A stretch of DNA of 64,000 bases from an uncultured Eubacteriales bacterium (GTDB lineage: Bacteria; Actinomycetota; Coriobacteriia; Anaerosomatales; CAVRZR01). The stretch's first letter is position 1. The number at the start of each line of letters is the position of its first letter. The stretch covers positions 11,199 to 75,198 of the forward strand of contig CAYGYT010000001.1 in NCBI GenBank assembly GCA_964354215.1, given 5' to 3'. The notes below the pieces were generated by a model, which searched no databases, was not told the origin of the DNA, and saw nothing but the letters and a program-made list of their open reading frames with translations. This document shows, one piece after another, positions 1-63,766 of this stretch. The position numbers were made by a program, and so were the translations under genes.

Positions 1-479
1 GTCTCCGCAGCGGCAAGCTCAAGCGGCGCTGAGCAGACACGCCTCGCCAATTCGAGGTTCGGCTGAGAGCAGATGACTAACCCGGCGGGGATTGAGATGG
101 CGCCTGCTGCCGTTCGTCTAGCTTAGGCGTCCTGGGCGCATGTATGTCTCTGGTGGGCCATAGTTGACAACCTTCGAACCCCGTGACTGGACCGACTTCC
201 TCGGGCACCTGGGGTCCCGGTCTCGTTGACATGCGGCACGTGAGAACCGAGAATCTGCCCAACTCAAGAGTGTGAATGGGTCCGTGGCCGAGGGGTCGCG
301 GAGGTGTTCGGAATGGACGGTCGGGCCGCCGTCCAGAGTCAGGTGACTTCGGGTGGCGGTCTTCTAGTTCTCTGGAGGTACAAAGGGTCCCTACCGGCAG
401 ACGGGACCGAGGCAATCGCATAGTGGGTCCGGAGTGCCTCGTCACCGGAGGCGCCCCGGAGGTGATCGAAAGGCAGTCG

Positions 480-1311: not shown

Positions 1312-2694
1312 CTACGGCATCTTCGCTGGCTCGATGAACTTGGTGAAGCGCTCGTTGAACACGAGCGGCACGGAGCCGGTGGGTCCGTTGCGATGCTTGG
1401 CGATGATGAGCTCGGCCATGCCCTTCGCCGGCCTGCCATCCTGGTCCTCGGCGTGCGGGTCAGTGTTGCGGTCGATGAACATGACCACGTCGGCGTCCTG
1501 TTCGATCGATCCCGACTCGCGCAGGTCCGACAGCTGCGGCCGCTTGCCGGCTCGCTGTTCGACCGCGCGCGAGAGCTGCGAGAGCGCGAGCACGGGCGCG
1601 TTCAGTTCCTTCGCGAGAATCTTGAGTCCCCGGCTGATCTCTCCGATCTCGACTGTGCGGTTTTGCTCGGACCGGCGGGCCTGTGGCTGCATGAGCTGCA
1701 GGTAGTCGACGATGACCAGGCCCCGTTGCTTGCCCCGCAGCTGCCGGCGTGCCTTGGTCCGAACCTCGAAGATCGAGATGGAGGGCGTGTCGTCGACCCA
1801 GAAGTCGAGTTCCGCGAGGCGGCCCATCGCTTGATGAATCGAGCCCCAGTCCTGCTCTTTGATGTATCCGGTACGCACGTCCTGCAGGTTGATGCGCGCC
1901 TCGGAGCAGAGCACGCGCTGTACGAGCTGCTCAGCAGACATCTCGAGGCTGAACAGGGCCACCGAGGTGCCCTTCTTTGCGGCGTTCACCGCCATGTTGA
2001 GCGCGAGCGAGGTCTTTCCGACGCTCGGACGTGCCGCGAGAATCGCGAGATCGCCCGCGTGGAGCCCCGCCAGGATCTTGTCCAGGTCCTTGAAGCCCGT
2101 GGGCACGCCAGTGACGTGCTCCTTGCGCTCGAAGAGCTCCTCGAGTTGGTGGAAGCCGATCTGCAGGAGCTCCTCCATCGGGCGGAAGTTGCTCTCCACC
2201 CGCTTGCTCGTGACCTCGAAGATCAGCCGCTCGGAATCCTCGATGACCGCATCGATATCGTCAGGCGCATCGAAGCCCATCGTCACGATCTGTGTCGCCG
2301 CACCGATAAGCTGGCGAAGCATCGCGGTGCGCTTGACAATCTGCGCATACCTCGACGCATTCGCGGCGGTAGGCACGACCTGCGTGATATCGAGCAGGTA
2401 CGGCTTGCCGCCAGCCTGATCGAGTTCTCCGGCGGTCTCGAGCCGATCGGCGACGCTCACGTGGTCGATGGGTACCCCGCGCGTGTACAGCTGCTCCATC
2501 GCCGAGAAGATGCGCGCGTGGGCGGGCCGGTAGAAGTCATGACCGTTCACGACGCTGAGGGCCTGTTCGACCGCCTCGGAGGACAGGAACATCGAGCCGA
2601 GCAGCGCTTGCTCGGCTTCGAGGTTGTGCGGCGGCACGCGTTCGGCCGACGAGACCGCGCGGAGACGCGGTTCCCGCAGGACTGCTTCGCTCAT
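1312..2694 (-). CDS. dnaB: Replicative DNA helicase DnaB
   Basis: N-terminal PPHNLEAEQALLGS motif, Walker A ARPSVGKTS, RSEQNRTVEIGEISRGLK and IAKHRNGPTG. Start moved to ATG 2694 (MSEAVLREP), because the longer ORF prefix looks non-coding. Confidence 0.93.
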   Translation of the reverse strand: MSEAVLREPRLRAVSSAERVPPHNLEAEQALLGSMFLSSEAVEQALSVVNGHDFYRPAHARIFSAMEQLYTRGVPIDHVSVADRLETAGELDQAGGKPYLLDITQVVPTAANASRYAQIVKRTAMLRQLIGAATQIVTMGFDAPDDIDAVIEDSERLIFEVTSKRVESNFRPMEELLQIGFHQLEELFERKEHVTGVPTGFKDLDKILAGLHAGDLAILAARPSVGKTSLALNMAVNAAKKGTSVALFSLEMSAEQLVQRVLCSEARINLQDVRTGYIKEQDWGSIHQAMGRLAELDFWVDDTPSISIFEVRTKARRQLRGKQRGLVIVDYLQLMQPQARRSEQNRTVEIGEISRGLKILAKELNAPVLALSQLSRAVEQRAGKRPQLSDLRESGSIEQDADVVMFIDRNTDPHAEDQDGRPAKGMAELIIAKHRNGPTGSVPLVFNERFTKFIEPAKMP

Positions 2695-2912
2695 CTGACG
2701 ACCCCTCCACGGGCCGGTTGCCGCGCGCCAGCTGCGCGCGTCCGGCTCTGGCCGGAGTCTAGAGGAGGGGTCTGACACGGACAACGCGCGGACACGCGAT
2801 ATCCACAGCCTCGGGTGCGCGCCCACCTGCGGTTTGCGCACTCTCCACAGATTCGCGCTGAATCGCCACTCGCTGCGGAGAAAGGCATCCGTGTGCTTGG
2901 TCCGAACGCTAA

Positions 2913-2939
2913 GACGCCACGCGATGAGGGCGTGGCGTC
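2913..2939 (-). terminator. Terminator-like hairpin downstream of rplI
   Basis: 10-bp stem gacgccacgc / gcgtggcgtc with a 7-nt loop, 30 nt after the rplI stop. On the minus strand it is followed by ttagcgttcgg. Confidence 0.5.
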
Positions 2940-2968
2940 CGCTGGGCTTGGTGAGGCGCTAGGCGCGG

Positions 2969-3595
2969 CTACTCCTGGGGGAAGTCCTCAGCAAGTGCCT
3001 CGGCGATGTCGTCCTCGGACTCGAGGGCCTGGTCGCCCTCGAAGGTGTCCTCGGCGGTGTCGCCCTCGGGCGCTTCGGCGGCCGCCTCGGCGACAACTTC
3101 TACGACCTCGGTCGGCTTGCCGGCGTCCACGAACGCGTCGGGCGCCGCGCCTTCGGGAACCACGTTCACCGTCAGCTGAGCCTTGACGTCACGGTAGACC
3201 GCGATCTCGACGACGTGCACGCCGAGCTCCTTGATGTGGCCATGCGTTTCGATCTTACGACGATCGATCTCGACACCGAGCTGTTCGCGCACGGCGTCCT
3301 CGATCATCTGAGAGGTGATCGAGCCGTAGAGGCGGCCTTCTTCGCCAACCTTCGCCTCGATGCCGACGCTCTTGCCCTCGAGCAACGAAGCGACGCCGCT
3401 GGCGTCGGCGAGACGCGCCTCATCGCGCTTGCGGACGTTGTGCATCCGCGCCTCAAGCTGCTTCAGATTGCCGGACGTCGCCTCGATGGCAACGTTTCGC
3501 GGCAACAGGTAGTTGACCGCGAACCCGCGCGCGACGTCGATGACGTCACCCTCGGCTCCTCGGCCTTTGAGTTCCTGCAACAGGATGACCTTCAT
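2969..3595 (-). CDS. rplI: 50S ribosomal protein L9 with acidic C-terminal extension
   Basis: MKVILLQELKGRGAEGDVIDVARGFAVNYLLPRN is a classic L9 N-terminus, and the gene sits in rpsF-ssb-rpsR...rplI-dnaB synteny. Confidence 0.93.
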   Translation of the reverse strand: MKVILLQELKGRGAEGDVIDVARGFAVNYLLPRNVAIEATSGNLKQLEARMHNVRKRDEARLADASGVASLLEGKSVGIEAKVGEEGRLYGSITSQMIEDAVREQLGVEIDRRKIETHGHIKELGVHVVEIAVYRDVKAQLTVNVVPEGAAPDAFVDAGKPTEVVEVVAEAAAEAPEGDTAEDTFEGDQALESEDDIAEALAEDFPQE

Positions 3596-3648
3596 GAATG
3601 CTCCTCGTTCGTTCGCGGGGCACGGCGCCCCACGACAGTGCCACTTCT

Positions 3649-4608
3649 CTAGATACTGCTCGGCGGTTCCTCAAGACGGGCGGGTGCACCCGATCCGTCC
3701 CGCGGGAGGCGCCGGAAGTTCGCCCAGAAATCGAGCATGCCGATCAGACTCACGATCAGAAGTACCTGGTCGAGCACCCACAGGACGATGTAGAGCGCGA
3801 CCATCTTGCCATAGCCGGTCCTCGGCACGTCGAACACCGCCGAGAAGACCGCAATACCTTGCAGGAAGAACAGCGTGCGAGCAACGAACAACGCGTTGAA
3901 TCCCACGACTCGGGCGAGTTGCGCGCTCGATCCAAAGAGCGGTGCTGTCGCCAGCAGGACCAGGCCCACCACGAGCGCCCACAAGACGTGCACGCTGAGG
4001 TCCAGGTCCCGGTTCGCCGGCACCTCAACCACGATCCCGCTTCGTCGTGCAGCCCATGCGATGGCGGCGATGACGAAGACCGCAGCGAAGAGCGCGGTCT
4101 GCACGTAGAACGACGGCCACAACATGACGAGTGCCGAGCGCGCTGCAGCGAGCTGCTCGGTCCATGCGGACGCGCTGGAACCCAACGCCTGCTTCAGACC
4201 CTCGCTCACGATGATGGCTTGGGCTCGCACCGCCTGCATGAGCGACTGTCCGAGAGAGCGGGCGGCCAGTATGTCCACAGCCGCCGCTCCACCGGCGATC
4301 GCACCGGTCAAGAGGAGTGCGACGAGCTGAGCAGACCGCCGCGGCAGAAGCCACACGGCCAGCAGAATCGCCGCGGCGGCGGGAGCCACGAATGCCACGG
4401 ACACCGGCAGTACCGACGCGGCCGCGGCGACACCGACGGCCGCCGCGAGAACGCTGACTGCGACCCGACCTCGGAAGGCAAGGCCCGCTGCCGCGGCAGC
4501 CGTCACCGGCAACCCCACGAGCGGGAGCTGCGATGATACGACCACACCGGCGGCACAGGCTGTGCCCAGCAACACCATGTCACGCACACCTGCGATCTGA
4601 TCGGACAA
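3649..4608 (-). CDS. Polytopic membrane protein, DUF2232 (YybS)-like by position and topology
   Basis: Multiple hydrophobic helices, located between rpsR and rplI as yybS is in Firmicutes. Start uncertain (TTG 4608, GTG 4587 or ATG 4578). Confidence 0.6.
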   Translation of the reverse strand: MSDQIAGVRDMVLLGTACAAGVVVSSQLPLVGLPVTAAAAAGLAFRGRVAVSVLAAAVGVAAAASVLPVSVAFVAPAAAAILLAVWLLPRRSAQLVALLLTGAIAGGAAAVDILAARSLGQSLMQAVRAQAIIVSEGLKQALGSSASAWTEQLAAARSALVMLWPSFYVQTALFAAVFVIAAIAWAARRSGIVVEVPANRDLDLSVHVLWALVVGLVLLATAPLFGSSAQLARVVGFNALFVARTLFFLQGIAVFSAVFDVPRTGYGKMVALYIVLWVLDQVLLIVSLIGMLDFWANFRRLPRDGSGAPARLEEPPSSI

Positions 4609-4616
4609 GAGCTGAC

Positions 4617-4877
4617 TTACCTGCGACGACCGTCGACGCGGCCGCTCACGACCGGGACGGTGTAGGGGACGAGCGCCATCTCGCGAGCACGCTTCACGGC
4701 CATGGAAAGCTGGTGCTGGTGCTGCGCGCAGTTGCCGGAGACGCGACGCGGCTTGATCTTGCCACGGTCAGTCATGTACTTGCGCAGCATCTGCGCGTCC
4801 TTGTAGTCGATGAACTCCGAGTGATCCTTGCAGAACTGGCAGTACTTGCGCCTCGGCTTGCGGGCGTAGTCGGACAT
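4617..4877 (-). CDS. rpsR: 30S ribosomal protein S18
   Basis: [17 protein letters not shown]...[18 protein letters not shown], with RBS GGAGGTAAG upstream. Confidence 0.95.
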
Positions 4878-4958
4878 CTGGCTTACCTCCTTCCGCGGGA
4901 TACGCGGTGTGATGTGGCGCGGACGGCGGGAGGGTACCGCCGCCCACCTGGGTTGGTT

Positions 4959-5360
4959 CTAGAACGGAATCTCGTCGCCGACCGTGTCGGCGGGCGCCGA
5001 TTCGGGAGCCGCATAGGACGCGGAGCCTTCCTTCGATGTCAGGAACTCGATCTCATCGGCTACGATGTCAACCTTCGAACGCTTGTCGCCCTGCGGCGTT
5101 TCCCACTGGTGCCAGCGGAGTCGCCCTTCGATCGCGACCTTCGAGCCCTTGCTGAGGAACCGCGAAAGGGCGTCAGCGCGCGCTCCGAAGATGCTGACGT
5201 CGAAGAAGTTCGGGACGTCTTCCCACTGGCCGGTCTCCTGGTTCTTGCGGCGGTCGTTGACCGCAACGCCGAGGGCGAGAACGGACGTGCCGCTCGGAAG
5301 CGCTCGGAGTTCCGGATCGCGGGTCAGATTGCCGCTTATGACAACTCGATTGATGCTCAT
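4959..5360 (-). CDS. ssb: Single-stranded DNA-binding protein
   Basis: MSINRVVISGNLTRDPELR... OB fold and acidic C-terminal tail ending DEIPF. Start set at ATG 5360 with GAAGGTGG upstream. Confidence 0.93.
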   Translation of the reverse strand: MSINRVVISGNLTRDPELRALPSGTSVLALGVAVNDRRKNQETGQWEDVPNFFDVSIFGARADALSRFLSKGSKVAIEGRLRWHQWETPQGDKRSKVDIVADEIEFLTSKEGSASYAAPESAPADTVGDEIPF

Positions 5361-5421
5361 GTACCCACCTTCATTCGTCACGGACCAACGTCACGGCATG
5401 GCGCATCCGTGTCGCCTCGTG

Positions 5422-5715
5422 CTATTCGCGATCCTCGCGGTGCACGAGCATGTAGCGCACAACGCCGTCGGTGATGTGCAGCACGCGGTCCAACTCGGCG
5501 ATGGAGGCAGGAGCGGAGTGGAAGTCGACGAGGGTGTAGTCCCCCTCGGTGAGCTTGTCGATCTCGAAGGCAAGCTTGCGCTTGCCCCAGGGCTCGACAG
5601 TGTCCACGACGCCCCCGTCGGCGGTGATCACGCCCTGGATCTTGTCCAGGACGCCCGCGTTCGCCTCCTCGTCGAGGGAGGGGTTCAACAGGAGCAGAAG
5701 CTCATAGGCCTTCAT
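5422..5715 (-). CDS. rpsF: 30S ribosomal protein S6
   Basis: MKAYELLLLLNPSLDEE... with RBS AAAGGAGGTGA. Confidence 0.95.
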   Translation of the reverse strand: MKAYELLLLLNPSLDEEANAGVLDKIQGVITADGGVVDTVEPWGKRKLAFEIDKLTEGDYTLVDFHSAPASIAELDRVLHITDGVVRYMLVHREDRE

Positions 5716-5795
5716 TGTTCACCTCCTTTGGACTAGACGGCCCCGGGACCCTGAAGGCGAAATGCCCGGAGCAGGAAATGAGCCTGCGCAGTGTA

Positions 5796-7043
5796 TCATC
5801 GGCCTGCCGCTGCCGCAACATCGCTCCCCACAGGCGCGACACAACAGCCAGGCTCTTCGTCGGATTCTTGCCGCCGCCACAGCGGCCAGAGCGCCCCCGC
5901 AGCCGTCAGCATGCCCGCCAAGGCGACAAGCCACGCGCGGCCGAGCCGCGAGAGCGCGACGCGGACCTCCGGGAGGCTCCTGCGTGCCGCCGCCGCGAGC
6001 AGATCTGTCGCCCCCGAGGCAGCACTCGCCGGCGCAGGAGCGGCCCGAACGACCCCGCTTCCCTGCTGCTGCCGCAGCCGCACGGCGCTGGTGCCCACGG
6101 CTCGCTGCGCTGGCGCAACGAGCCCTTCCATAGCCACGGCAGCCGCTGTGAGGGGCACATCTGCAGCGGAAGCGCGCACACGCGCTCCCACCGAGGACGC
6201 GCCCCCGGCTCGTGCGGCGGACATCGAGCTTGATCCAAGGTCCAGCGACCTGAACGCGAACGGAATGGGTTGAACCGGGGCTACCGGGTCTGAACCTGAC
6301 GCGTCGGGCTCGAGGCGAGCAGACTCAGCGGTCGGCTCCACGGTCACGCGCTCGAGAGGCGACGTCTCCGCGACGTGCGCCCGGGGGGCCGGATCCGGAG
6401 CTGGGTCCGAGGCCGGTTCCAGCGGCGTGGCTGCGGCGGTCGCGGCTGGAACGTCGGCCGAGGGTGCAGTGCGCGGCTCGCTCGCCCGGGCGGGCTCGAC
6501 CTGCGGCTCCGGCCGACTCGGGGACACGGGTGGAGCAACGAAGGCGCAGGGATCGAGATAGAGATCTCCCCGCCGTGCACCCAGGTGCAGGTGGATTCGC
6601 GATGAGGAGGCGTCTCCTGCGCCCGCCACCTGGGCAATCGAGGACCCGGACTCCACCCGCTCGCCTGAAACGACGCGAGCTGCCTCGAGCGGCATCAGCG
6701 TGAACCTGACGCCATCGGCGCGCTCGATCGTCACCGCGAGCTGGGTGCCCGAGACTCCTGTTGCTGGAACCCTCCCCACGAAACGCACCACGCCGGAACA
6801 GGGCGCGAGCACCAGATCCCCCTGCTGGGCCGCCAAGTCCACTCCCCGGTGTGTGGCGCCAGTGCCGTCCGCACCCGTGTAGGACGTTCCGAACGCCGTG
6901 ATCACCTCGGCGGCCGACGACAGCGGCCACCCCAACGATTCCGCCCGCGCAGCCTCCCCGCCCGACAGTGCCATGGCCGCGAACAGGGCGAGTCCGAGCA
7001 GGCTCAGCCGACGTGCAGCGGTGTAGCGTTCTGCGATGTACAT
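5796..7043 (-). CDS. M23 (LytM-type) peptidase with signal sequence and long Ala/Pro/Ser-rich C-terminal region ending in a hydrophobic helix
   Basis: HRGVDLAA...GDLVLAPCSGVVRFVG...IHLHLGARRGDLYLDP motifs. Start set at MYIAERY... (7043), which precedes the signal-like LSLLGLALFAAMALSG. Confidence 0.85.
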   Translation of the reverse strand: MYIAERYTAARRLSLLGLALFAAMALSGGEAARAESLGWPLSSAAEVITAFGTSYTGADGTGATHRGVDLAAQQGDLVLAPCSGVVRFVGRVPATGVSGTQLAVTIERADGVRFTLMPLEAARVVSGERVESGSSIAQVAGAGDASSSRIHLHLGARRGDLYLDPCAFVAPPVSPSRPEPQVEPARASEPRTAPSADVPAATAAATPLEPASDPAPDPAPRAHVAETSPLERVTVEPTAESARLEPDASGSDPVAPVQPIPFAFRSLDLGSSSMSAARAGGASSVGARVRASAADVPLTAAAVAMEGLVAPAQRAVGTSAVRLRQQQGSGVVRAAPAPASAASGATDLLAAAARRSLPEVRVALSRLGRAWLVALAGMLTAAGALWPLWRRQESDEEPGCCVAPVGSDVAAAAGR

Positions 7044-7199: not shown

Positions 7200-7275
7200 T
7201 GGAGCGGGCGACGGGTCTCGAACCCGCGACCTAAAGCTTGGGAAGCTTTCGCTCTACCAACTGAGCTACGCCCGC
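7200..7275 (-). tRNA. tRNA-Gly (anticodon CCC), CCA encoded
   Basis: The reverse complement gcgggcgtagctcagttggtagagcgaaagcttcccaagctttaggtcgcgggttcgagacccgtcgcccgctcca folds as a cloverleaf. Anticodon loop is ttCCCaa and the T-loop is ttcgaga. Confidence 0.92.
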
Positions 7276-55034: not shown

Positions 55035-55387
55035 AGGACCTGTGCCCTTCGCAAGACCGACTGCAGCGCCGCGTCGATCTCGCTCGGTCTGGCCGTGACG
55101 ACGCCCACGCGAGCGACGAGCGCGACGTCGAAGGTCCGCCACGGCCCATTCGCGCGACGAGCGGCCTCCCGGAGCACTCGTCTCGCCCGGTTGCGCGCGA
55201 CCGCTCCGCCCATCCGCCTGCCGGCGACGAAGCACACCCGTCCGTCGGCGGAACTCGGGGGAGCAGGGGCGACCAGCAGCATCATGAGCGGGTGAGAAAC
55301 CTTCTTGCCGCTCCGGAACATCGCGTCGATCTCGCGCGACGATCGGATTGTCTGCACTGCCGCCTCCGCACGGGCAGGGCGGGCCAC
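55031..55387 (-). CDS. rnpA: RNase P protein component
   Basis: Basic protein with the RNR-like motif ([16 protein letters not shown]) in rpmH-rnpA synteny. The GTG start overlaps the rpmH stop (TAGTG). Confidence 0.85.
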
Positions 55388-55524
55388 TACGCGCTGAGGC
55401 GTGCACGCCCCTTGCGACGGCGAGCGGCCAGAATCGCGCGGCCGCCTCGAGTAGACATGCGTGCACGGAAGCCATGCGTCTTGGCGCGCTTCCGGGTGTT
55501 AGGCTGGTACGTCCTCTTACTCAC
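55387..55524 (-). CDS. rpmH: 50S ribosomal protein L34; absent from the ORF track as a separate ORF
   Basis: (M)[47 protein letters not shown] start with GGAGGAACC upstream. Confidence 0.93.
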
Positions 55525-55571: not shown

Positions 55572-55601
55572 ATTATACAGACGCCTTTTCCGCAGTGTCA
55601 A
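55572..55601 (-). promoter_or_regulatory. Sigma-70-type promoter for rpmH (TTGACA-N18-TATAAT)
   Basis: Minus strand reads TTGACA (55601-55596) and TATAAT (55577-55572), about 50 nt upstream of the rpmH start. Confidence 0.6.
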
Positions 55602-55702: not shown

Positions 55703-56109
55703 TGTGGACAGTGTGGAAAAAGCAGGTCTTGACGCTCCCGCGGCCTGTGGATAACCCGCTTCGAGGAATTGTCCTTCGCTTCCGCGCTTTGCTAGACTCA
55801 GCCCTGTTCTCCTAGCTGCTCGGACTGCTCGCATCACCTTGAGAAACGCCGCTCGTCGCCAATAAGGTTCCGCTCATCTCCCAGCCGCCGCCACGACGGA
55901 TGGGATTGTCCACAGGCCTGAGTTGTCGCGCGTTCGCGCGGCGCCACCCTCTGCAAGCGCTTTCCACAGGGTCTCGCTTCCGGAGGGGTGTTTTCCACCG
56001 ATTCTCGCGCTGTCTCCGGTGGCTGAACGTGCCTGTGCTGCGGCGTTCGCTCTGTTGATTGCCCTTGGGCACACCGCCTGTCCACAGATGTGGAAAGCAC
56101 TGTGGACAA
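55703..56109. other. oriC-type DnaA-box cluster (at least 9 boxes)
   Basis: Perfect TTATCCACA at 55746-55754 (reverse orientation). TTGTCCACA at 55906-55914 and 56101-56109. CTGTCCACA at 55703-55711 and 56078-56086. TTTTCCACA at 55712-55720. CTTTCCACA at 55960-55968 and 56089-56097. TTTTCCACC at 55991-55999. Confidence 0.8.
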
Positions 56110-56239
56110 CAGCGGAAACCCGAGGTGAGGCAGGGATTCGCGCCTTCTGCTGCCCCTTCCGCGGAGCGAGAAGGCGCCCGCCAGAGCGGGGCCTCGTCAC
56201 GACGATATCGCCGAAGCGTGTGAGGGCCTACGAAGAATA

Positions 56240-57238
56240 GTGGGGGTTTTGAAACCTTTCTTCTCTGAAGAGCGTGTGCCACGGACACGGCTCGCGGAGC
56301 GAGCGGGATCCGGCTCCGGTCGTGCCGGGCCCGGCGTCCTGCCTTGCGCGTCGACCGCCGGGCCGGCTTTGGTGCGCAACATCCTCTCACCAACGGAGTC
56401 GGCCCGCATCGCGGTCTACGACGCCGTCGGCAGCGCCCCGCGTGTCGAGGAGGTCGCTCCCGTCGAGACGGGGGAGTACATCTCGCTTCTGGCTACCCGC
56501 ACGTACGAAATGGCCCGCGCCATGGGCGGCCGAGTGCCGTTCTCGGTCATCAACGAGGTCGCGGAGAACTACATCCACGCGGACTTCCGATCGCCGGTCG
56601 TCACCATCCTCGACTCCGGCAACACTATCCGCTTCTCCGACCAAGGTCCCGGCATACACGACAAGATCAGGGCGGTCGAGCCGGGCTACACGACCGCCTC
56701 GGCAAACATGAAGCGCTACATCCGGGGCGTTGGCTCCGGCCTCCCGCTCGTGCGCGAGTGCCTCTCCTTCACGGGCGGGACCGTACAGATAGAGGACAAC
56801 CTCGGCTCGGGCGCAGTTGTTACCGTCAGCGCAGGGAGCGCCGCGGACGCGGCAGCGCCCCACGCCTCGTCGTTGCCCGCGAAGGGCTCCGGTGAGTCGA
56901 CAGAGTCCCGCGCGGCATCTCTGCCGACGCAGGCGTCTTCGCCGCCCGCGCCAGAGCAAGACACCGCCTTCCGTCTTCAGCCAGCCTCCTATCCGGGTCC
57001 GGATGGGGCGTCTCGGCTCACGAACAGACAGAAACGGGTCCTTGCCCTGGTGATGGAAGCCGGCTACGCGGGACCGTCTCTCGTAGCTCGGGAACTCGCG
57101 ATCGGGCTGTCAACCGCCTATCGAGACCTGGCTCACTTGGAGACGCTCGGTCTGATCTCGTCCGATGAATCTGGCAAGCGGGCACTTACTCCGGAAGGGT
57201 CTCAGTTCTTGGAGAGCCTTCTCCATCCAGGGAGATAG
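56240..57238 (+). CDS. GHKL-type ATPase domain protein fused to a C-terminal winged-HTH, encoded between the DnaA-box cluster and dnaA
   Basis: N-box-like NEVAENYIHAD, G1 DQGPGI, G2 GVGSGLPLV, an Ala/Ser/Pro linker, then RQKRVLALVMEAGYAGPSLVARELAIGLSTAYRDLAHLETLGLI. True start uncertain (no convincing RBS; GTG 56240, 56276 or 56372). Confidence 0.6.
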   Translation: MGVLKPFFSEERVPRTRLAERAGSGSGRAGPGVLPCASTAGPALVRNILSPTESARIAVYDAVGSAPRVEEVAPVETGEYISLLATRTYEMARAMGGRVPFSVINEVAENYIHADFRSPVVTILDSGNTIRFSDQGPGIHDKIRAVEPGYTTASANMKRYIRGVGSGLPLVRECLSFTGGTVQIEDNLGSGAVVTVSAGSAADAAAPHASSLPAKGSGESTESRAASLPTQASSPPAPEQDTAFRLQPASYPGPDGASRLTNRQKRVLALVMEAGYAGPSLVARELAIGLSTAYRDLAHLETLGLISSDESGKRALTPEGSQFLESLLHPGR

Positions 57239-57274
57239 GCTCGCGTGCGCACTGACTCTGCTGAGGGGATTGAC

Positions 57275-58669
57275 ATGTCCGACGTGAACGTGATCTGGGA
57301 CGGCGTCTTGGATGTCGTGCGCGGCGAGCTGACCACGCCCGTCTTCAAGACGTGGTTCGAGCACGCCCGCCCCGTCTCTCTCGACACCGATGGCGTGTTC
57401 GTCATCGGTGTGCAGAACGAGTTCGCGCGCGAGTGGTTCGAGTCGAGGTACTCGAGCCTCATCCGATCGGCGGTCAGCCAGGTCACCGGCGAGGGTATGG
57501 ATATTCGCGTCGTCATCGACCGAGAGGCGGCGGAATCCGCCGTGTCATCCGTGTCGACATCCGACGTCGAGGTGGAGTCCATTGCCCGCGATCTCGAAGC
57601 GAATGAGGAGAAGCGCCTGCAAGAGGCGTCAGCCGGCGACTTCGGCCCGAAGTACACGTTCGACACGTTCGTCACCGGGGAATCGAACCGCTTCGCGTGT
57701 ACCGCCGCCCTCGCCGTCGCTGAGGCACCGGGGCTTTCCTACAACCCGCTCTTCATCTACGGGGGGGCGGGGCTGGGGAAGACACACTTGCTTCAGGCGA
57801 TCGGGCACTACGTTCGCAAGAACTACTCACACAAGAAGGTCGTGTACGTGTCTACGGAGCAGTTCACGAACGACTTCATCAACTCCATACGCGACCGAGA
57901 CTCGAATCGCATCGACGGCTTCAGGCAGCGCTACCGGAACTCCGACGTCCTCCTCGTCGACGACGTTCAGTTCCTGAAGGGCAAGGAGGGTATCCAAGAG
58001 GAGTTCTTCCATACCTTCAACGCCCTGCAGCAGCACGGGAAGGCGGTCGTGCTGTCGTCCGACCGGCCTCCCAAAGACATCGCGACCCTCGAGGACCGGC
58101 TTCGGAGTCGCTTCTCGATGGGCCTCATTACCGACATCCAGCCGCCCGACCTCGAGACGCGCATCGCTATTCTTCGGCGTAAGGTTGATACCGAACGCCT
58201 GGTAGTCCCGGACGACGTGCTCGAGTACACCGCCGGGCGTGTGTCTTCGAACGTCAGAGAGCTCGAGGGGGCCCTTACTCGAATAGCCGCGTATGGATCA
58301 CTGTCCCGGCATCCGGTCGATCTGGAGCTCGCCAAGACGGTGCTTCAGGACGCGTTCCCTGAGCGCTCGACCCGGCCGATCGCCGTGTCCACCATTCAAC
58401 GAGAGGTCTGCAAGTACTATTCGATCAGCCACTCGGAACTCGTCGGGAGCAAGCGCTCCCAAAACATCGTCTATCCTCGGCAGATCGCCATGTACCTAGC
58501 CAGGGAACTCACTGACATGTCGCTACCAAAGATCGGGGATGAATTCGGTGGAAGGGACCACACCACCGTCATGCACGCGACCGCGAAAATCCAGAAGCTC
58601 ATGAATGCCCAGCGGGAGGTCTACAACCAGATACAATCCCTCACCAACACGATCCGGCAACAAACCTGA
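57275..58669 (+). CDS. dnaA: Chromosomal replication initiator DnaA
   Basis: [13 protein letters not shown]..., AAA+ Walker [23 protein letters not shown], and domain [10 protein letters not shown]. Start set at ATG 57275 with GAGGGG upstream. Confidence 0.95.
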
Positions 58670-58900
58670 TGTCACTGCCTGTTGACAAGGGTGTTGGCAA
58701 CAGGTGGTTCACCTGTGGGCCTGTTCGGCCACTTTGTGGGAAACGCCTCCGCGCTGTGGGTCCTGGGGATACTCTCGTGTCCTTCTCCACACGCAGCTCG
58801 AACGGACACGCCCGCTGCCACCTGCGTTCTTGGTGACCTTCCACATGCGCACAGGACCTAGTACTGAGACGGATAGTCATAGATATGAAAGGAACACTAG

Positions 58901-59998
58901 ATGAAGTTCAGTGTCGCTCGGACCGAGCTCTCTGAGGCCCTCGCCGTGGCGGGGAGGGGACTCTCGGCCCGCTCCACGCTCCCGATCCTTTCAGGGATCC
59001 TCGTCTCGTGTGAGAAGGGTTCCGTCACCTTCCAGACAACGGATCTGGAAATCTCGGTCCAGACTCAGGTCAACGCGCTCGTAGAAGAAGAAGGGCGAAG
59101 CGTCCTTCCTGGAAGGCTGTTCTCGGATATCGTCCGGAATATGCCCGAGGCCGCGATATCGGTGAGCGTCGAGAAAGACACCGCGGTGATCTCCGGCGCA
59201 ACAGCGTCGTTCACCCTCAAGACGCTCCCGGCCGACGATTTCCCCAAGTTCCCGGTCGTTTCTGTCGGCAAACGAGTCTCTCTTCCCTCGGCGATCATGA
59301 CATCTCTCGTGCGGCAGGTGGCCAAGGCGGTGAGCAGAGACGAGACCCGCGCCATATTGACGGGGGTTCTGCTGTCGGTAGACGGGCCGTCAATTCGCAT
59401 GGTCGCCACCGATTCCTATCGCTTGGCCGTGAGGGAAGAGGAGCTCGAGACCCCGGCGGAACACCTTGAGGTCGTGGTACCGGGCAAGGCGCTTGAGGAA
59501 GTGACGAAGCTTCTTTCCGGAGCGGATGCGGTGGAGATGGGGGTCGCCGAGAACCAGATTGTGTTCCAGTTCGGGGAGACGATCTTCGTGACGCGACGAA
59601 TCGAAGGAACATTCCCGAACTACAAACAACTGATTCCGAAGGAGCGCGAGACGGTGGTACGCGTTCCCTCCGAGGAGTTTGCCGCAGCGGTGAAACGCGT
59701 GTCCATCATGGCCCAACACAACACGCCACTCCGGCTGTCGGTCCACAGCGAGGACCAGACGCTCAGCCTCAGCGCCGCAACGCAGGACGTCGGCGATGCC
59801 TCCGAGGACCTAATGGCAAAGGTCGAAGGCCCAGACGTCGAGATCGCCTTCAATCACGCCTTCCTACTGGATGGTCTCTCGTCGATAGCCTCCGAAGACA
59901 CGCTGGTCGAAATCGTGAGCCCTCTCAAGCCGGGCGTAGTCAAGCCCGCGGATGGAGAGGACTACCTCTACCTGCTCATGCCCGTACGGTTGAGCTGA
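58901..59998 (+). CDS. dnaN: DNA polymerase III beta sliding clamp
   Basis: MKFSVARTELSEAL...LPILSGILV..., three-domain length, C-terminal YLLMPVRL. Confidence 0.95.
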   Translation: MKFSVARTELSEALAVAGRGLSARSTLPILSGILVSCEKGSVTFQTTDLEISVQTQVNALVEEEGRSVLPGRLFSDIVRNMPEAAISVSVEKDTAVISGATASFTLKTLPADDFPKFPVVSVGKRVSLPSAIMTSLVRQVAKAVSRDETRAILTGVLLSVDGPSIRMVATDSYRLAVREEELETPAEHLEVVVPGKALEEVTKLLSGADAVEMGVAENQIVFQFGETIFVTRRIEGTFPNYKQLIPKERETVVRVPSEEFAAAVKRVSIMAQHNTPLRLSVHSEDQTLSLSAATQDVGDASEDLMAKVEGPDVEIAFNHAFLLDGLSSIASEDTLVEIVSPLKPGVVKPADGEDYLYLLMPVRLS

Positions 59999-60011: not shown

Positions 60012-61142
60012 GTGCACGTCTGGATCAAGCGGCTGGAGCTCACTGACTTCCGGAACTATGAGTCGTTCGTCCTCGAGCCCGCTGAAGGCCTCACCGTCCT
60101 GTTGGGGCCGAACGCGGTCGGGAAGACGAATGTCATCGAAGCGATAGAGCTTGTGACCGAGACGTCCTCATTCAGGAATCCGGCGTGGTCGGATCTGGTG
60201 CGAGCCGGCGCCGACCGGGCAGTCGTTTCGATGCGCGCGGAGTCGGAAGCCGGGAGCAGGACGGACATCGTGCTCGCTGTGGAGAATGGACGCCGGGCGT
60301 ATCGCGTGAACGGCACCGCGAAACGATCGGTCATCGATGCGGCGGGACAGGTGCCCGCGGTCGTGTTCACGCCAGACGACCTCCGCATCATCAAAGAGGC
60401 CTCAGACAGACGGCGAGGCGCAGTGGATTCAGTAGGAACCCAGGTGTCTCGAGCGTACGCGCAGCTCAAGACCGAATACGACCGAGTGCTCAGGCAGCGG
60501 AACGCGCTCCTCAGAGAGGGCGAGGTAGACGACGGGGAGATCGCGCCGTGGACGGAACAGCTCGTGCGGGCGGGAGCCGCCCTCGCGACTCGACGACGGC
60601 GGCTGACCGACACGATGGCTGGGCATCTCACGAAGGAGTACGAGGCGCTCTCGGGTGGAGAGGACCTCCGCGTCTCCTACGTGAGCACGTGGCGCCCGCA
60701 GACGCGCGGGCTGGACGCATACGACGCACATGGCGCGGCGAACGCAGATGACCAGGAAGCCGAGGAAGCCGCGGCGATGGCCGAGGTGCTGGTGGCCCGG
60801 CGTGGCGAGGAGCGAGCGCGACGAACGAGCCTCGTGGGACCGCATCGGGACGACCTACGATTCGAGGTCGAAGCGAAGGACGCACGCACGTTCGCATCAC
60901 AGGGCCAGCAGCGGAGCATCGCCTTGGCGTGGAAGCTCGCTGAGCTCGAAGTGATCGAGGAACTGACAGGAACAACGCCCGTCTTGTTGCTGGACGACGT
61001 CATGTCGGAGCTGGACGAGTCGAGGCGCCACGCGCTTTCGGCTCGGGTCAGCCAACGAACACAGACGGTCATGACCACAACGAACCTTGGGTACTTCGAC
61101 GAGGCTCTCATCGCCGAGGCAAAGGTTGTGGAGCTGGCATGA
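60012..61142 (+). CDS. recF: DNA replication and repair protein RecF
   Basis: LELTDFRNYE, Walker A GPNAVGKTNVIEAI, signature SQGQQRS, and LLLDDVMSELD. Confidence 0.93.
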   Translation: MHVWIKRLELTDFRNYESFVLEPAEGLTVLLGPNAVGKTNVIEAIELVTETSSFRNPAWSDLVRAGADRAVVSMRAESEAGSRTDIVLAVENGRRAYRVNGTAKRSVIDAAGQVPAVVFTPDDLRIIKEASDRRRGAVDSVGTQVSRAYAQLKTEYDRVLRQRNALLREGEVDDGEIAPWTEQLVRAGAALATRRRRLTDTMAGHLTKEYEALSGGEDLRVSYVSTWRPQTRGLDAYDAHGAANADDQEAEEAAAMAEVLVARRGEERARRTSLVGPHRDDLRFEVEAKDARTFASQGQQRSIALAWKLAELEVIEELTGTTPVLLLDDVMSELDESRRHALSARVSQRTQTVMTTTNLGYFDEALIAEAKVVELA

Positions 61143-61720
61143 GGAAGCGGAACACGCAGACCACCCTCGGGGACGCTCTCAGCGGGTGTATTCGGCGGTT
61201 GGACCGCGGCGGAAACCTCACGCAAGCGAGAGTCGTCGAAGCTTGGCCAAAAGCCGCTGGCCCCGACATAGCCCGACACACCGCGGGCGTGCACATCCGC
61301 CGAGATGAGATCGTCGTGTACGTCGACTCTCCGGTCTGGGCCACGGAGCTCTCGGCACTCTCGGCCCAGCTCGCGCAACGTCTTAACGAGTGTCTGGGTG
61401 AGGACCTGGTTGGAGCCATGCGCTTCACTGTGTCCAGGAAGGTAGTGGAACAGCGGGCGCGAGAGGCGCAGTCGGACGAGGACGATCTGTTCTACACACA
61501 GGACAAGGTGGAGCCAGTGCCGCTCGGCGAAGCGGAGCTCGAACAGGTCCGGCAGAGTGCCGCCGCCATACGTAACCGGGACCTGCGCGAGACCGTGATC
61601 CGCGCCACTGTGAAGGACCTCGAATGGAAGCGAGGAATCGAGCGCCGCGACTCCCCCGGCCCGCGCAGCCCGGTCCCGCCGTCAGCCGATGGCGCGACTG
61701 GTGTCGAACAAGGGTCCTGA
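61139..61720 (+). CDS. DUF721-domain protein (DciA-like) between recF and gyrB
   Basis: VVEAWPKAAGPDIARHTAGVHIRRDEIVVYVDSPVWATEL is typical of DUF721. The position is equivalent to the mycobacterial DciA gene. Confidence 0.75.
   Translation: MRKRNTQTTLGDALSGCIRRLDRGGNLTQARVVEAWPKAAGPDIARHTAGVHIRRDEIVVYVDSPVWATELSALSAQLAQRLNECLGEDLVGAMRFTVSRKVVEQRAREAQSDEDDLFYTQDKVEPVPLGEAELEQVRQSAAAIRNRDLRETVIRATVKDLEWKRGIERRDSPGPRSPVPPSADGATGVEQGS

Positions 61721-61770: not shown

Positions 61771-63766
<1,996 letters not shown>

Follow-up and report, generated by a model that had tools for sequence, protein, structure and literature searches.

A GHKL-ATPase/winged-helix gene adjoining dnaA as a candidate regulator of chromosome replication in Coriobacteriia, Ca. 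Aquicultoria and Firmicutes-type genomes

Organization of the origin region

The window (the whole stretch of 64,000 nucleotides that was analysed) has its cumulative GC-skew minimum at ~56–60 kb, and the ORF at 56240–57238 (plus strand) is a genuine gene situated between an upstream DnaA-box cluster and dnaA. We refer to it as gene X. The insertion of a gene at this site was the central element of the original prediction, and it is borne out. The features of the region are as follows.

55387..55524, minus strand: rpmH (ribosomal protein L34), assigned from its translation and divergent from gene X
55572..55601, minus strand: rpmH promoter, a perfect TTGACA-18-TATAAT (promoter scan 12/12), also visible in relatives
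55703..56109, no strand: upstream DnaA-box cluster with tandem TGTGGACAGTGTGGAAAA, TGTGGATAA, TTGTCCACA and a triple CTGTCCACAGATGTGGAAAGCACTGTGGACAA, a layout kept in relatives
55769..55798, plus strand: candidate X-dnaA promoter, TTGTCC-18-TAGACT
56242..56246, plus strand: Shine-Dalgarno sequence of gene X, GGGGG
56249..57238, plus strand: gene X, GHKL-ATPase/wHTH protein, 329 aa from TTG 56249 (332 aa from GTG 56240)
56249..56263, plus strand: N-terminal aromatic peptide MKPFF
56396..56857, plus strand: GHKL/Bergerat-fold ATP-binding domain, residues ~50–203
56555–56587: N box, preceded in the domain by a beta-hairpin (RIAVYD..APRVEEV) and helix alpha1
56639–56656: G1 box, followed by a lid with PGYTTA
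56726–56746: G2 box
56858..57016, plus strand: Ala/Ser/Pro low-complexity linker, residues ~204–256
57017..57226, plus strand: C-terminal wHTH, residues ~257–326
57239..57274, plus strand: X-dnaA spacer, 36 nt, with the dnaA Shine-Dalgarno sequence GAGGGG at 57263–57268 (sequence and terminator scan)
57275..58669, plus strand: dnaA, starting at ATG 57275 (Pfam DnaA_N, Bac_DnaA, Bac_DnaA_C)
58670..58900, no strand: dnaA-dnaN spacer with a second DnaA-box cluster, TAG/TAC trio-like repeats (~58859–58890) and an AT-richer stretch
58901–59998, plus strand: dnaN (Pfam)
60012–61142, plus strand: recF (Pfam)
61139–61720, plus strand: dciA (Pfam)
61856–63766, following dciA: gyrB (Pfam)

Of 80 related loci, 74 have rpmH in this place; in five others the contig stops short of it, and the remaining locus (L064) has pyr genes. 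The putative X-dnaA promoter was picked out by eye in aligned intergenic regions, relatives having ‘tgcTAGAAT’ at this place, and its score is too low for the automatic scan.

The window contains 11 copies of the DnaA-box sequence TGTGGAMA where 1.5 are expected, and seven of the 11 lie within 55703–56108. The cluster that had been described at 55703–56109 is therefore genuine, but it is one of two. Across 81 loci the gap between rpmH and X carries 7.4 boxes per kb as against 0.38 per kb elsewhere, and the dnaA-dnaN spacer carries 10.6 per kb, with TAGTAGTAA-type arrays beside a DnaA box in 42 of 73 loci (DnaA-trios as defined in PMC6669920). From these arrangements it is likely that the unwinding element, composed of a box plus DnaA-trios, lies in the dnaA-dnaN spacer and does not adjoin X.

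Enrichment of exact and one-mismatch k-mers in both gaps flanking the X-dnaA pair recovered only DnaA boxes, DnaA-trio arrays and ribosome binding sites (of dnaN), and no X-specific operator. A word resembling GGAYAC(R)CCG, noticed on visual inspection of the two gaps, was discarded, as it overlaps -35-like or box-like sequence and has no statistical prominence. In the long spacer between rpmH and X, Rfam models gave no structured RNA and no riboswitch at the gathering threshold, the match to STAXI (E 0.94) being at chance level.

Gene X and its family

Homologues of X begin with M-[KR]-x-[FY]-[FYL] in ~70 of 81 loci, and a G-run, GGGGG in the window, lies 2–6 nt before the inferred start in a similar number (~70/81). 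Translation therefore most likely starts at TTG 56249 (MKPFFSE…) rather than at GTG 56240, from which the ORF had originally been drawn. With this start, the AT-rich patch at 56228–56270, for which origin DNA had been entertained, is not origin DNA but the ribosome binding site, the start codon and the conserved N-terminal peptide.

Searches returned 1826 homologues at E≤1e-3. The family is discrete, with 386 clusters (50% identity) at E≤1e-30 compared to 4846 generic matches at 1e-3, and we estimate its size at ~390–540 clusters at 50% identity. At least 496 species carry the gene, a lower bound because the genome scan relied on a pair of exact peptide patterns (STAYRDLA. and I[RK]GVGSGLP[IL]) and misses Atopobiaceae-type sequences. 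The gene is conserved and under purifying selection, and it is single-copy: the 80 best loci include no paralogue that is not next to dnaA. There is no dedicated Pfam or NCBIfam model for the family, its members are named only “ATP-binding protein” in public records, and a full-text literature search found no paper that deals with the protein or with any gene lying between rpmH and dnaA in Coriobacteriia.

Architecture of the X protein

A GHKL ATPase joined by a linker to a winged helix-turn-helix (wHTH), with no H-box, had been proposed for this ORF, and Pfam, family-wide profile matches and AF2 models all support this composition. The Pfam HATPase_c model matches residues 102–196 (E=1.6e-8, 35.4 bits versus a cutoff of 26.4) as well as 30 of 30 diverse family members, and the domain is modelled with pLDDT mostly >85. 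Foldseek aligns it with the CA domains of histidine kinases (probability 1.00) and also with PDK2. Numbered from the TTG start, the N box is E103..E106-N107..H110, G1 is D131-Q-G-P-G-I and G2 is G160-V-G-S-G-L-P; E103, E106, N107, H110, D131, G133, G135, G160, G162 and G164 are invariant across the family. For catalysis, GHKL proteins require DxGxG, GxGxG, the Mg-binding Asn and a Glu four positions ahead of that Asn. The Mg-binding Asn (N107), D131-x-G-x-G and G160-x-G-x-G place X in the GHKL superfamily together with the fold match, and the best reading of its intact ATP-site residues is that the domain is catalytically competent. Because the catalytic Glu at N-4 is invariant, ATP turnover rather than mere binding is suggested.

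The hallmarks of a two-component sensor histidine kinase, namely a DHp/HisKA domain and a cognate response regulator or sensor domain, are lacking. No HisKA-type Pfam model matches X even at E≤1, and the AF2 models have no DHp helical hairpin, a beta-hairpin and one helix preceding the N box instead, nor any sensor domain or transmembrane segment. No response regulator lies near X in the window or in the ~89 loci, where the neighbours are rpmH, dnaA, dnaN, recF, dciA and gyrB.

The N-terminal peptide is followed by a variable, disordered spacer extending to about residue 48 (pLDDT ~50). The peptide reads MAxxFYPFVDN in Atopobiaceae and MESYFQRFIDNLE in Aquicultoria, and Firmicutes-type loci have basic amphipathic versions of it; the branch represented by L088 has a polar N-terminus with no aromatic peptide, so the peptide is not universal. 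Intramolecular docking of the peptide was considered and rejected, its pLDDT staying at ~50 in an AF2 model built from 131 sequences. The linker is likewise disordered (pLDDT <55), and its length among homologues ranges from ~10 to >200 residues.

The C-terminal domain is modelled with pLDDT >90 and has the topology H-H-H-beta-beta-H, with STAYRDLAHLE as its recognition helix. It had been called MarR-like; the generic wHTH fold holds, but MarR is too specific, the closest types being Csa3, TrmB and IclR. Among 30 members, the Pfam models HVO_A0261_N, TrmB and IclR match 22, 17 and 17, respectively, and the MarR model gives weak matches in fewer (10/30). Csa3/CasR-type wHTH matches are also found in PADLOC and NCBIfam, and Foldseek returns Hpr/MarR (2fxa) and AspA (5k5q). 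MarR-family proteins carry their wHTH within a ~140-aa helical dimerisation scaffold, and the wHTH of X comprises only ~70 aa. The recognition helix is near-invariant within branches but differs between them (STAYRDL, PTWTREL, SSTFQMF), and the DNA target of X may therefore not be origin DNA.

Linkage of X to dnaA

Gene X lies directly upstream of dnaA and on the same strand in all 89 loci with a readable downstream gene: 80 of 80 species-level genome loci (the best 80) and nine from other branches. The absence of positional conservation in relatives had been named as grounds for abandoning the original prediction, and this comparison decisively removes those grounds. The 89 loci span Coriobacteriia (including cultured Olsenella), Ca. 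Aquicultoria and Firmicutes-type MAGs. Adjacency is seen in Atopobiaceae (L081–L084), in an Eggerthella-like or other Coriobacteriia branch (L088, L089), and in Firmicutes-type loci (L085, L086, L090) that have dnaN-yaaA(S4_2)-recF and jag-mnmE-mnmG. Where the rpmH side is rearranged, by pyr genes in place of the rpmH cluster (L064), a 1.9-kb insertion (L077) or an inserted bioY (L091), X still stays with dnaA. The physical coupling of X to dnaA thus extends to two or three deep lineages, with DnaA boxes on either side of the pair.

The gap between the two genes has a median of 19 nt (IQR 13–33, n=77 loci) and a DnaA-box density of 0.18 per kb across loci; in the window the spacer contains no DnaA box, and a terminator scan found no terminator in it. 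Because adjacency is universal, the median gap is 19 nt and the window gap has no terminator, co-transcription of X with dnaA and a dnaA-linked role are well supported as hypotheses, and a separate dnaA promoter within the 3′ end of X is possible. Few bacterial gene neighbourhoods resist rearrangement as strongly as that of rpmH and dnaA, and positional conservation is for this reason weaker evidence here than elsewhere.

Two closer couplings were considered and set aside. An apparent X-DnaA fusion in L079 (a 719-aa ORF) contains a TAA stop, and programmed read-through from X into dnaA, with which the shared frame in the window would agree, does not fit the random distribution of frames in 77 loci (19/27/31).

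Relationships to known systems

The original prediction held that the architecture resembles neither a kinase nor an anti-sigma factor, and this needs correction: the ATP-binding domain aligns over its full length with SpoIIAB, and its best PDB profile matches are the Ser kinases BCKDK/PDK (E 1e-5, via a common IRxSDxGxGI..K...FTTA motif). With a SpoIIAB sequence entered by hand, hhalign aligns residues 71–193 of X with residues 23–137 of SpoIIAB at a probability of 88.7%, from alpha1 through the last strand. At the level of sequence profiles this shows relatedness of X to SpoIIAB, not membership, and TIGR01925 scores only 13.8 bits on X against a cutoff of 135, which places X outside the SpoIIAB/RsbW sequence family. 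Like the single-domain proteins SpoIIAB and RsbW, X has a stand-alone GHKL domain with no DHp; the three have in common the order beta1-alpha1-N-box helix, a lid motif P-x-F-T-T, and a catalytic Glu at the fourth position ahead of the Mg-binding Asn. The SpoIIAB and RsbW genes sit directly upstream of those of their DNA-binding targets, and X too is directly upstream of the gene for a DNA-binding protein. Unlike them, X includes a wHTH of its own along with an N-terminal peptide and two long disordered tethers, and the gene that follows is dnaA and not a sigma factor gene; neither a STAS antagonist gene nor a sigma-factor gene is present near X at any locus examined.

Among histidine-kinase CA domains and PDK, the best fold matches are HK853, CpxA, PhoQ, CheA P4 and PDK2, and the sequence profiles of KinB and MprB match in addition to BCKDK, with N, G1 and G2 boxes intact. 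X differs from these kinases: it lacks a HisKA/DHp acceptor His, a sensor or transmembrane domain and the N-terminal helical bundle of PDK type, and there is no response regulator in its neighbourhood.

A Foldseek search with the predicted structure, suggested along with the original prediction, gave DIP2311 of Corynebacterium diphtheriae (PDB 3lmm, an uncharacterised structural-genomics protein) as its top match and the sole one to cover both domains in the same order. The alignment extends over ~300–318 columns (E 5e-6 to 4e-5) with 14–15% identity and TM 0.32–0.38. DIP2311 is 555 aa long with a large extra N-terminal region that has no counterpart in X, and none of 30 X members matches its GHKL subfamily in Pfam. 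It has no known function or linkage to dnaA, and the mention found in the literature is only incidental.

Pfam, NCBIfam, PDB sequence and Foldseek searches detected no homology of X to YabA, Hda, SirA, Soj, DiaA/HobA, Spo0A, MtrA, AdpA, CtrA or SeqA. Like the known DnaA/oriC regulators, X would be a lineage-restricted accessory factor tied to DnaA or the origin, and like Hda and YabA it could bridge DnaA with DNA or the clamp; to our knowledge, none of these regulators is a GHKL protein and none is the fixed first cistron of a dnaA operon. Noc and X both combine a nucleotide-binding switch with an HTH, and a conserved N-terminal peptide with a variable spacer, but Noc is a ParB-like CTP-gated DNA-membrane tether with the ParB-CTPase fold in place of GHKL. 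Csa3-type CARF-wHTH regulators have the most similar wHTH, their nucleotide-binding fold being CARF rather than GHKL. Membership of X in a defence system was rejected; only its wHTH matches PADLOC Csa3/CasR/CARF models, and its context is the replication origin.

Possible roles of X

From its context, X is a strong candidate for a new regulator of chromosome replication. The reading that we prefer, and to which we give about an even chance, is an ATP-dependent, DNA-tethered regulator that is co-expressed with DnaA and acts on DnaA or on initiation. X would be the promoter-proximal cistron of an X-dnaA transcription unit whose promoter region is embedded in DnaA boxes, and would be made together with DnaA, probably under DnaA autoregulation. 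Of its putative modules (the aromatic N-terminal peptide on a disordered spacer, a GHKL domain of histidine-kinase/SpoIIAB/PDK type, the flexible linker and the wHTH), the wHTH would anchor X on DNA, probably origin-proximal, and the GHKL module would bind ATP and then hydrolyse it or transfer its phosphate. In this way X might control whether a partner, most likely DnaA itself, is bound or is phosphorylated on Ser/Thr; the N-terminal peptide would serve as the docking motif, and initiation or dnaA expression would be tuned to the nucleotide or energy state of the cell. It is from context that we infer this function, including co-transcription with dnaA, binding to DNA, turnover of ATP and a target in DnaA or the origin.

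A more far-reaching version, which we offer only tentatively, is that X represents a new class of initiation regulator: a GHKL kinase or ATP switch that would be tethered to DNA, would obligatorily be encoded first in the dnaA operon and might control DnaA directly through phosphorylation or through ATP-gated sequestration as an ‘anti-DnaA’ analogous to anti-sigma factors. Such a class would extend over Coriobacteriia, human-gut and oral taxa among them, as well as Ca. Aquicultoria and some deep Bacillota, and we know of no DnaA regulator currently described in these carriers.

X could instead be solely a nucleotide-sensing transcription factor, in which the GHKL domain senses ATP/ADP, much as the CARF domain of Csa3 senses its ligand, and the wHTH controls the X-dnaA promoter or another regulon with no direct action on DnaA or unwinding. 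The resemblance of the wHTH to those of Csa3/CasR/TrmB/IclR regulators, which pair a ligand-sensing domain with a wHTH, is consistent with this, as is the place of X as the first gene behind a complex, conserved promoter region. We nonetheless consider it unlikely: no palindromic or repeated operator besides DnaA boxes is enriched near the promoter, the invariant catalytic Glu points beyond nucleotide binding, and two long flexible tethers plus an N-terminal docking peptide would be odd for a simple repressor.

X might also have no part in replication, being for instance a general regulator or a stress kinase that was inserted once in an ancestor and kept in place by stable origin-proximal gene order. 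In nearly all bacteria jag-yidC-rnpA-rpmH and dnaA-dnaN-recF are syntenic, and no origin-specific motif could be tied to X. Against this, the gap to dnaA stays at ~19 nt with neither boxes nor a terminator, X follows dnaA when the rpmH side is rearranged, the linkage persists in lineages with otherwise different origin-region gene orders, and no copy of this single-copy gene was found elsewhere, which makes such an explanation distinctly unlikely.

The N-terminal peptide suggests two further roles. In the first, X would be an Hda/YabA-like factor whose peptide binds the beta-clamp, such that DnaN loaded on DNA would recruit X, which would then inactivate or titrate DnaA once initiation has occurred. 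The clamp-binding consensus is QL[SD]LF or QLxLxL, and X peptides carry its C-terminal half (S-F-F, S-L-F, Y-P-F): x-S-F-F and x-S-L-F resemble QLSFF and QLSLF, and QDFYPF of Atopobiaceae resembles QLSLPL. As in Hda, the peptide forms the very N-terminus and is carried by a flexible spacer, and dnaN comes next after dnaA; this role is nevertheless very unlikely, since the hallmark Gln is absent in most members, some branches have no such peptide, and AF2 gives it no structure.

In the second, X would be a Noc-like NTP-gated tether with a weak amphipathic membrane helix at its N-terminus, the wHTH on origin-proximal DNA and ATP-dependent oligomerisation attaching or sequestering the origin at the membrane. 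Its layout of peptide, spacer, NTP-binding domain and HTH parallels that of Noc. The Firmicutes-type N-termini (MSWFKRLFGG, MGIFSRFFGPKK, MFSFFSKLLKKFKK) also resemble the tail of MinD. Their likeness to the Noc helix is close; in Noc, K2, S4, F5, R7, F8 and F9 are important, and a variable spacer comes after the conserved N-terminus (PMC4331003). A cationic amphipathic helix is found only in this minority branch, and a family-wide membrane-targeting helix was rejected, the median hydrophobic moment being 0.375 against a background of 0.27 (95th percentile 0.57). With Pro and acidic residues in MKPFFSEE of the window, a moment of 0.5 reached by only 17% of N-termini and a net negative charge in 51%, we regard this as the least probable of the alternatives.

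Significance

Outside E. coli, Bacillus and Caulobacter we know of no identified DnaA regulator in most bacteria, and gene X is a single-copy, strongly conserved and unnamed gene physically tied to dnaA across whole classes. Its carriers include cultivable members of the human and animal microbiota (Olsenella and other Atopobiaceae), and the availability of isolates, together with a clear operon structure and well-defined targets for point mutants (E103, N107, D131, the recognition helix and the N-terminal peptide), makes the question directly testable. Even with a purely transcriptional role, the family deserves a dedicated model, as pipelines label the gene ‘histidine kinase’ or ‘ATP-binding protein’. 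If DnaA or the origin is indeed its target, X would provide the first kinase-like control, of GHKL type, known for replication initiation in bacteria, and initiation would be linked to ATP through a protein besides DnaA.

Conserved position and probable start of the gene

X, the GHKL-ATPase/winged helix-turn-helix (wHTH) gene, is co-oriented with dnaA-dnaN-recF and lies directly 5' of it in all 80 related loci retained. The arrangement recurs in nine loci of other branches (L081-L084, L085, L086, L088, L089, and L090); two short contigs are cut off too early to identify their downstream gene. The position in relatives, for which the original prediction had proposed a check, is thus conserved. 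The jag-yidC-rnpA-rpmH genes are divergent upstream of X in 74 of the 80 loci, five contigs ending earlier and one (L064) differing. The X stop and dnaA start are a median of 19 nt apart (IQR 13-33, n=77); in the window the distance is 36 nt, which includes the dnaA Shine-Dalgarno sequence and in which no terminator-like site was found.

Three loci are altered nearby. L064 has pyrC, pyrB, and pyrR-like genes (1874-5800) in place of the rpmH-rnpA-yidC-jag cluster; rearrangement or a join made in MAG assembly has parted rpmH from dnaA there and left X in place. In L077 1.9 kb is inserted, and in L091 bioY separates rnpA from X. X still adjoins dnaA in all three, so the two genes behave as a unit.

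An open reading frame is present at 56240-57238 on the plus strand as first described. In about 70 of 81 loci the product begins M-[KR]-x-[FY]-[FYL] from an in-frame ATG, GTG, or TTG preceded by a GGGGG Shine-Dalgarno sequence, and the closest relative (L001) reads GGGGGGGTTG-TTG-AAG-CCA-TTC-TTT. The corresponding window features are:

56242-56246, plus strand: Shine-Dalgarno sequence GGGGG
56249, plus strand: TTG, putative X start (MKPFFSEE, matching the conserved homologue N-terminus)

Judged by these alignments, the start codon in the original prediction needs correction to the putative TTG at 56249. The AT-rich patch at 56228-56270, previously suggested as possible origin DNA, is instead the ribosome binding site, start codon, and conserved N-terminus.

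Domains and structural relatives

The X product matches Pfam HATPase_c (E 1.6e-8; 35.4 bits against a curated cutoff of 26.4; residues 102-196) and no HisKA-type Pfam model even at E<=1, in agreement with the proposed histidine-kinase-like ATPase fold lacking a HisKA/H-box. Two AlphaFold2 models are concordant (18-sequence alignment, pLDDT 71.6; 131-sequence alignment, pLDDT 79.5, pTM 0.58).

AlphaFold2 segments of the X product
Residues 1 to about 48: disordered N-terminal segment
Residues about 50-203: GHKL alpha/beta domain, confident
Residues 204-256: low-complexity linker, disordered
Residues 257-326: wHTH, confident

The linker expected between the ATPase domain and the wHTH is disordered in both models. 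The C-terminal domain had been called a MarR-like wHTH; the winged helix is confidently modeled, and the MarR label is too narrow. The C-terminal 70 residues of the window protein match many winged-helix models weakly, and such matches are consistent over 30 diverse family members, with HVO_A0261_N (22/30), TrmB (17/30), IclR (17/30), and MarR (10/30); we rejected X as a MarR protein proper on the membership test. No NCBIfam model reaches its cutoff; the best partial matches are to the Csa3 wHTH and to various kinase CA domains.

The top Foldseek match in the PDB is DIP2311 of C. diphtheriae (3lmm; E 5e-6 to 4e-5, 14-15% identity), an uncharacterised structural-genomics protein and the sole match covering both domains in order (about 300-318 columns). 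Histidine-kinase CA domains (HK853, CpxA, PhoQ, CheA P4, VanS) and PDK2 follow, and the wHTH alone matches Hpr/MarR (2fxa) and AspA (5k5q). Against PDB sequences, the family profile finds the Ser kinases BCKDK/PDK best (E 1e-5, via the common 'IRxSDxGxGI..K....FTTA'), then KinB, MprB, CheA, and MutL, with the wHTH matching PhiH1-repressor-like, FapR, ArsR, and AdcR proteins. By hhalign the family aligns with B. subtilis SpoIIAB at 88.7% probability (X 71-193, SpoIIAB 23-137), a result that is indicative only; the aligned span starts at helix alpha1, takes in the N box, G1, P-x-F-T-T lid motif, and G2, and ends in the last strands. The SpoIIAB and BCKDK/PDK matches speak against the earlier view that the protein resembles neither a kinase nor an anti-sigma factor.

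We rejected membership in several known groups. X is not a histidine kinase, lacking a DHp domain and a partner regulator, nor a SpoIIAB/RsbW member (TIGR01925 13.8 against 135 bits, with no STAS or sigma genes), nor a defence protein, as only its wHTH has PADLOC matches (Csa3/CasR type).

Extent of the family and conserved residues

A word-indexed search gave 1826 homologues at E<=1e-3; the top 120 share 45-70% identity over >=80% of the protein. A profile searched exhaustively against 1.84 billion cluster representatives yields 386 clusters at E<=1e-30 and 543 at <=1e-10, beyond which generic HATPase_c proteins form a wide shoulder (4846 at 1e-3); the family is thus discrete. The only names in source records are 'ATP-binding protein', 'histidine kinase', 'MarR family regulator', and 'anti-sigma regulatory factor/ArsR regulator'. 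When one genome per GTDB species was scanned with two peptide patterns, relatives appeared in 496 or more species; this is a minimum, as the patterns miss Atopobiaceae-type sequences.

Carriers include two Actinomycetota classes and a third branch with Firmicutes-type gene order. Among those in Coriobacteriia are Anaerosomatales and Atopobiaceae, including Tractidigestivibacter, cultured Olsenella absiana/YH-ols2223, and Atopobiaceae HCP3S3 isolates; those in Ca. Aquicultoria are Aquicultor, Oleimmundimicrobium, and Subteraquimicrobium. The third branch, which includes a MAG named 'Clostridia bacterium' (L085, GCA_034926675.1), L086 (36% GC), and L090, has jag-mnmE-mnmG upstream and dnaN-S4_2/yaaA-recF-dciA-remA-like genes downstream, with DciA encoded after recF and X again directly 5' of dnaA.

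Invariant or nearly invariant residues in broad alignments (numbered from TTG 56249)
N-terminal beta-hairpin: R53-x-A55-x-Y57-D58, P64-R65
N box: E103, E106-N107, H110, F113
G1: D131-Q-G-P-G-I, K139
Lid: P-G-[FY]-[ST]-T-A
G2: G160-V-G-S-G-L-P
Further pair: D183-N184
wHTH: R260, G275-P276, T289, R292, L297

The Asn is the Mg-ATP ligand of GHKL enzymes, and the G1 Asp makes the adenine contact; in GyrB, MutL, PDK, and SpoIIAB-type enzymes the Glu at position N-4 relative to this Asn serves as general base. All three are invariant in the X family, which argues for a domain that turns over ATP or carries out phosphotransfer and against a degenerate one.

DnaA boxes and the likely origin

The window has the gene map of a chromosomal origin, with parB, parA, rsmG, jag, yidC, yidD, rnpA, and rpmH on the minus strand, followed by X, dnaA, dnaN, recF, dciA, and gyrB on the plus strand, and a cumulative GC-skew minimum at about 56-60 kb. 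The DciA gene (DUF721 helicase operator; 61139-61720, plus strand) shares 4 nt with the end of recF, and its presence indicates that the lineage uses the ancestral DciA system, not DnaC/DnaI loaders. Rfam matches at gathering threshold, unrelated to X, are an nhaA-I RNA motif (278-334, plus strand; 50 bits) and a tRNA (7203-7275, minus strand).

The window has 11 copies of TGTGGAMA where 1.5 are expected; seven of them, within 55703-56108, substantiate the DnaA-box cluster reported upstream of X.

DnaA-box density (TTRTCCACA, <=1 mismatch)
rpmH-X gap: 7.4/kb
dnaA-dnaN gap: 10.6/kb
X-dnaA gap: 0.18/kb
Elsewhere: 0.38/kb

X and dnaA together sit between the two clusters. The rpmH-X layout is conserved, with, in turn, the rpmH promoter, tandem boxes, a promoter-like element toward X, and further boxes; many relatives also have one near -20, immediately ahead of the X Shine-Dalgarno sequence.

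55601-55572, minus strand: rpmH promoter, perfect sigma-70 consensus TTGACA-18-TATAAT
55769-55798, plus strand: promoter-like element toward X, TTGTCC-18-TAGACT ('tgcTAGAAT' in relatives)
56077-56109: triple DnaA box within the rpmH-X gap

The perfect rpmH consensus is kept in relatives and is unusual for a 65% GC genome. A leader word, CACCTTGAAAAC (window 'caccttgagaaac'), is conserved 3' of the promoter-like element (window 55769-55860; also L010, L020, L024, and L039). If this putative promoter is used, the X-dnaA mRNA would have a leader of about 450 nt with several DnaA boxes; the region has no Rfam match.

In relatives, the dnaA-dnaN gap contains boxes and, beside the last, arrays such as TCCACAgccCTTATTACTACTATTATT, the other strand being TAA/TAG repeats; TAGTAGTAA (<=1 mismatch) is present in 42/73 of these gaps and is not enriched on the rpmH-X side. 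The window's second cluster (58670-58900) has a final box, TAG/TAA DnaA-trio-like repeats, and an AT-richer stretch before the dnaN ribosome binding site, and similar arrays occur in the dnaA-dnaN spacers of L003, L018, L020, L024, L027, L039, L060, and others. This pattern matches the basal unwinding system, and the predicted unwinding site is most likely downstream of dnaA, not beside X. The cluster beside X resembles the B. subtilis incA/B region, which also houses the dnaA promoter.

The rpmH-X spacers of L081 and L082 (Atopobiaceae) and L088 have few canonical boxes and many GTTGAAAAC / GTGAAAAGTTTTC-like repeats, which could be divergent DnaA boxes or X binding sites; these branches also differ in the wHTH recognition helix (PTWTREL, SSTFQMF).

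Possible roles of X

X is a conserved, single-copy gene under purifying selection, and its product combines an intact catalytic GHKL site with a wHTH, two flexible tethers, and an N-terminal peptide. Comparative genomics strengthens its candidacy as a dnaA-associated regulator. Our leading reading, with chances about evenly balanced, is that it is a dedicated regulator of DnaA or of initiation. No X-specific operator was found in the flanking gaps and the recognition helix varies by branch (STAYRDL, PTWTREL, SSTFQMF), which count against any model in which X binds origin DNA.

A purely transcriptional, ATP-sensing regulator is rather unlikely. It is somewhat less probable that the function is unrelated and the position kept by inertia: the rpmH/dnaA neighbourhood is notoriously stable, and this is the main caveat, but the X-dnaA unit is somewhat more than such stability would yield.

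Two further roles concern the N-terminal peptide, which is conserved with lineage-specific forms, is absent from at least the L088 branch, and is left unstructured by AlphaFold2 even with 131 sequences. We treat it as a putative short linear docking motif.

Forms of the N-terminal peptide
Most Coriobacteriia: MK[SPG]F[FY]
Atopobiaceae: MA[RQH]xFYPFV[DE]N
Aquicultoria: ME[SN]YFQRF[IV]DNLE
Subteraquimicrobiales: MKxFL[EQ]K[IL]
Firmicutes-type branch: basic amphipathic, MSWFKRLFGG, MGIFSRFFGPKK, MFSFFSKLLKKFKK

The peptide resembles the C-terminal half of beta-clamp-binding motifs (QLSFF, QLSLF, QLSLPL), but the Gln is usually missing, and a clamp-linked Hda/YabA-like factor is improbable. The Noc membrane-targeting helix, in which K2, S4, F5, R7, F8, and F9 are important, likewise has a conserved N-terminus and then a variable spacer (PMC4331003). 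Firmicutes-type X N-termini are strikingly like it (the L085/L086/L090 branch being also MinD-like), but a Noc-like origin-membrane tether is slightly more doubtful still, as a cationic amphipathic helix is unsupported family-wide: hydrophobic moments have a median of 0.375, compared with 0.27 in internal windows (95th percentile 0.57); a value of 0.5 is reached by just 17% of N-termini, and 51% carry a net negative charge.

X is fixed immediately 5' of dnaA and follows a predicted promoter region dense in DnaA boxes. As a regulator of DnaA, it would be made and regulated together with DnaA through co-transcription. The wHTH would keep it on DNA, and the GHKL module may gate partner binding or phosphorylation in an ATP-dependent, SpoIIAB/PDK-like manner, with DnaA the first candidate partner and DnaN the second. 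Anti-sigma kinases are encoded just upstream of their sigma factors, which is a suggestive analogy for X and dnaA but no more than that. Full-text literature searches found no description of the protein or of a conserved rpmH-dnaA gene in these lineages, and there is no dedicated Pfam or NCBIfam model. The domains of X are known; no earlier description of their architecture or of the obligate coupling to dnaA is known.
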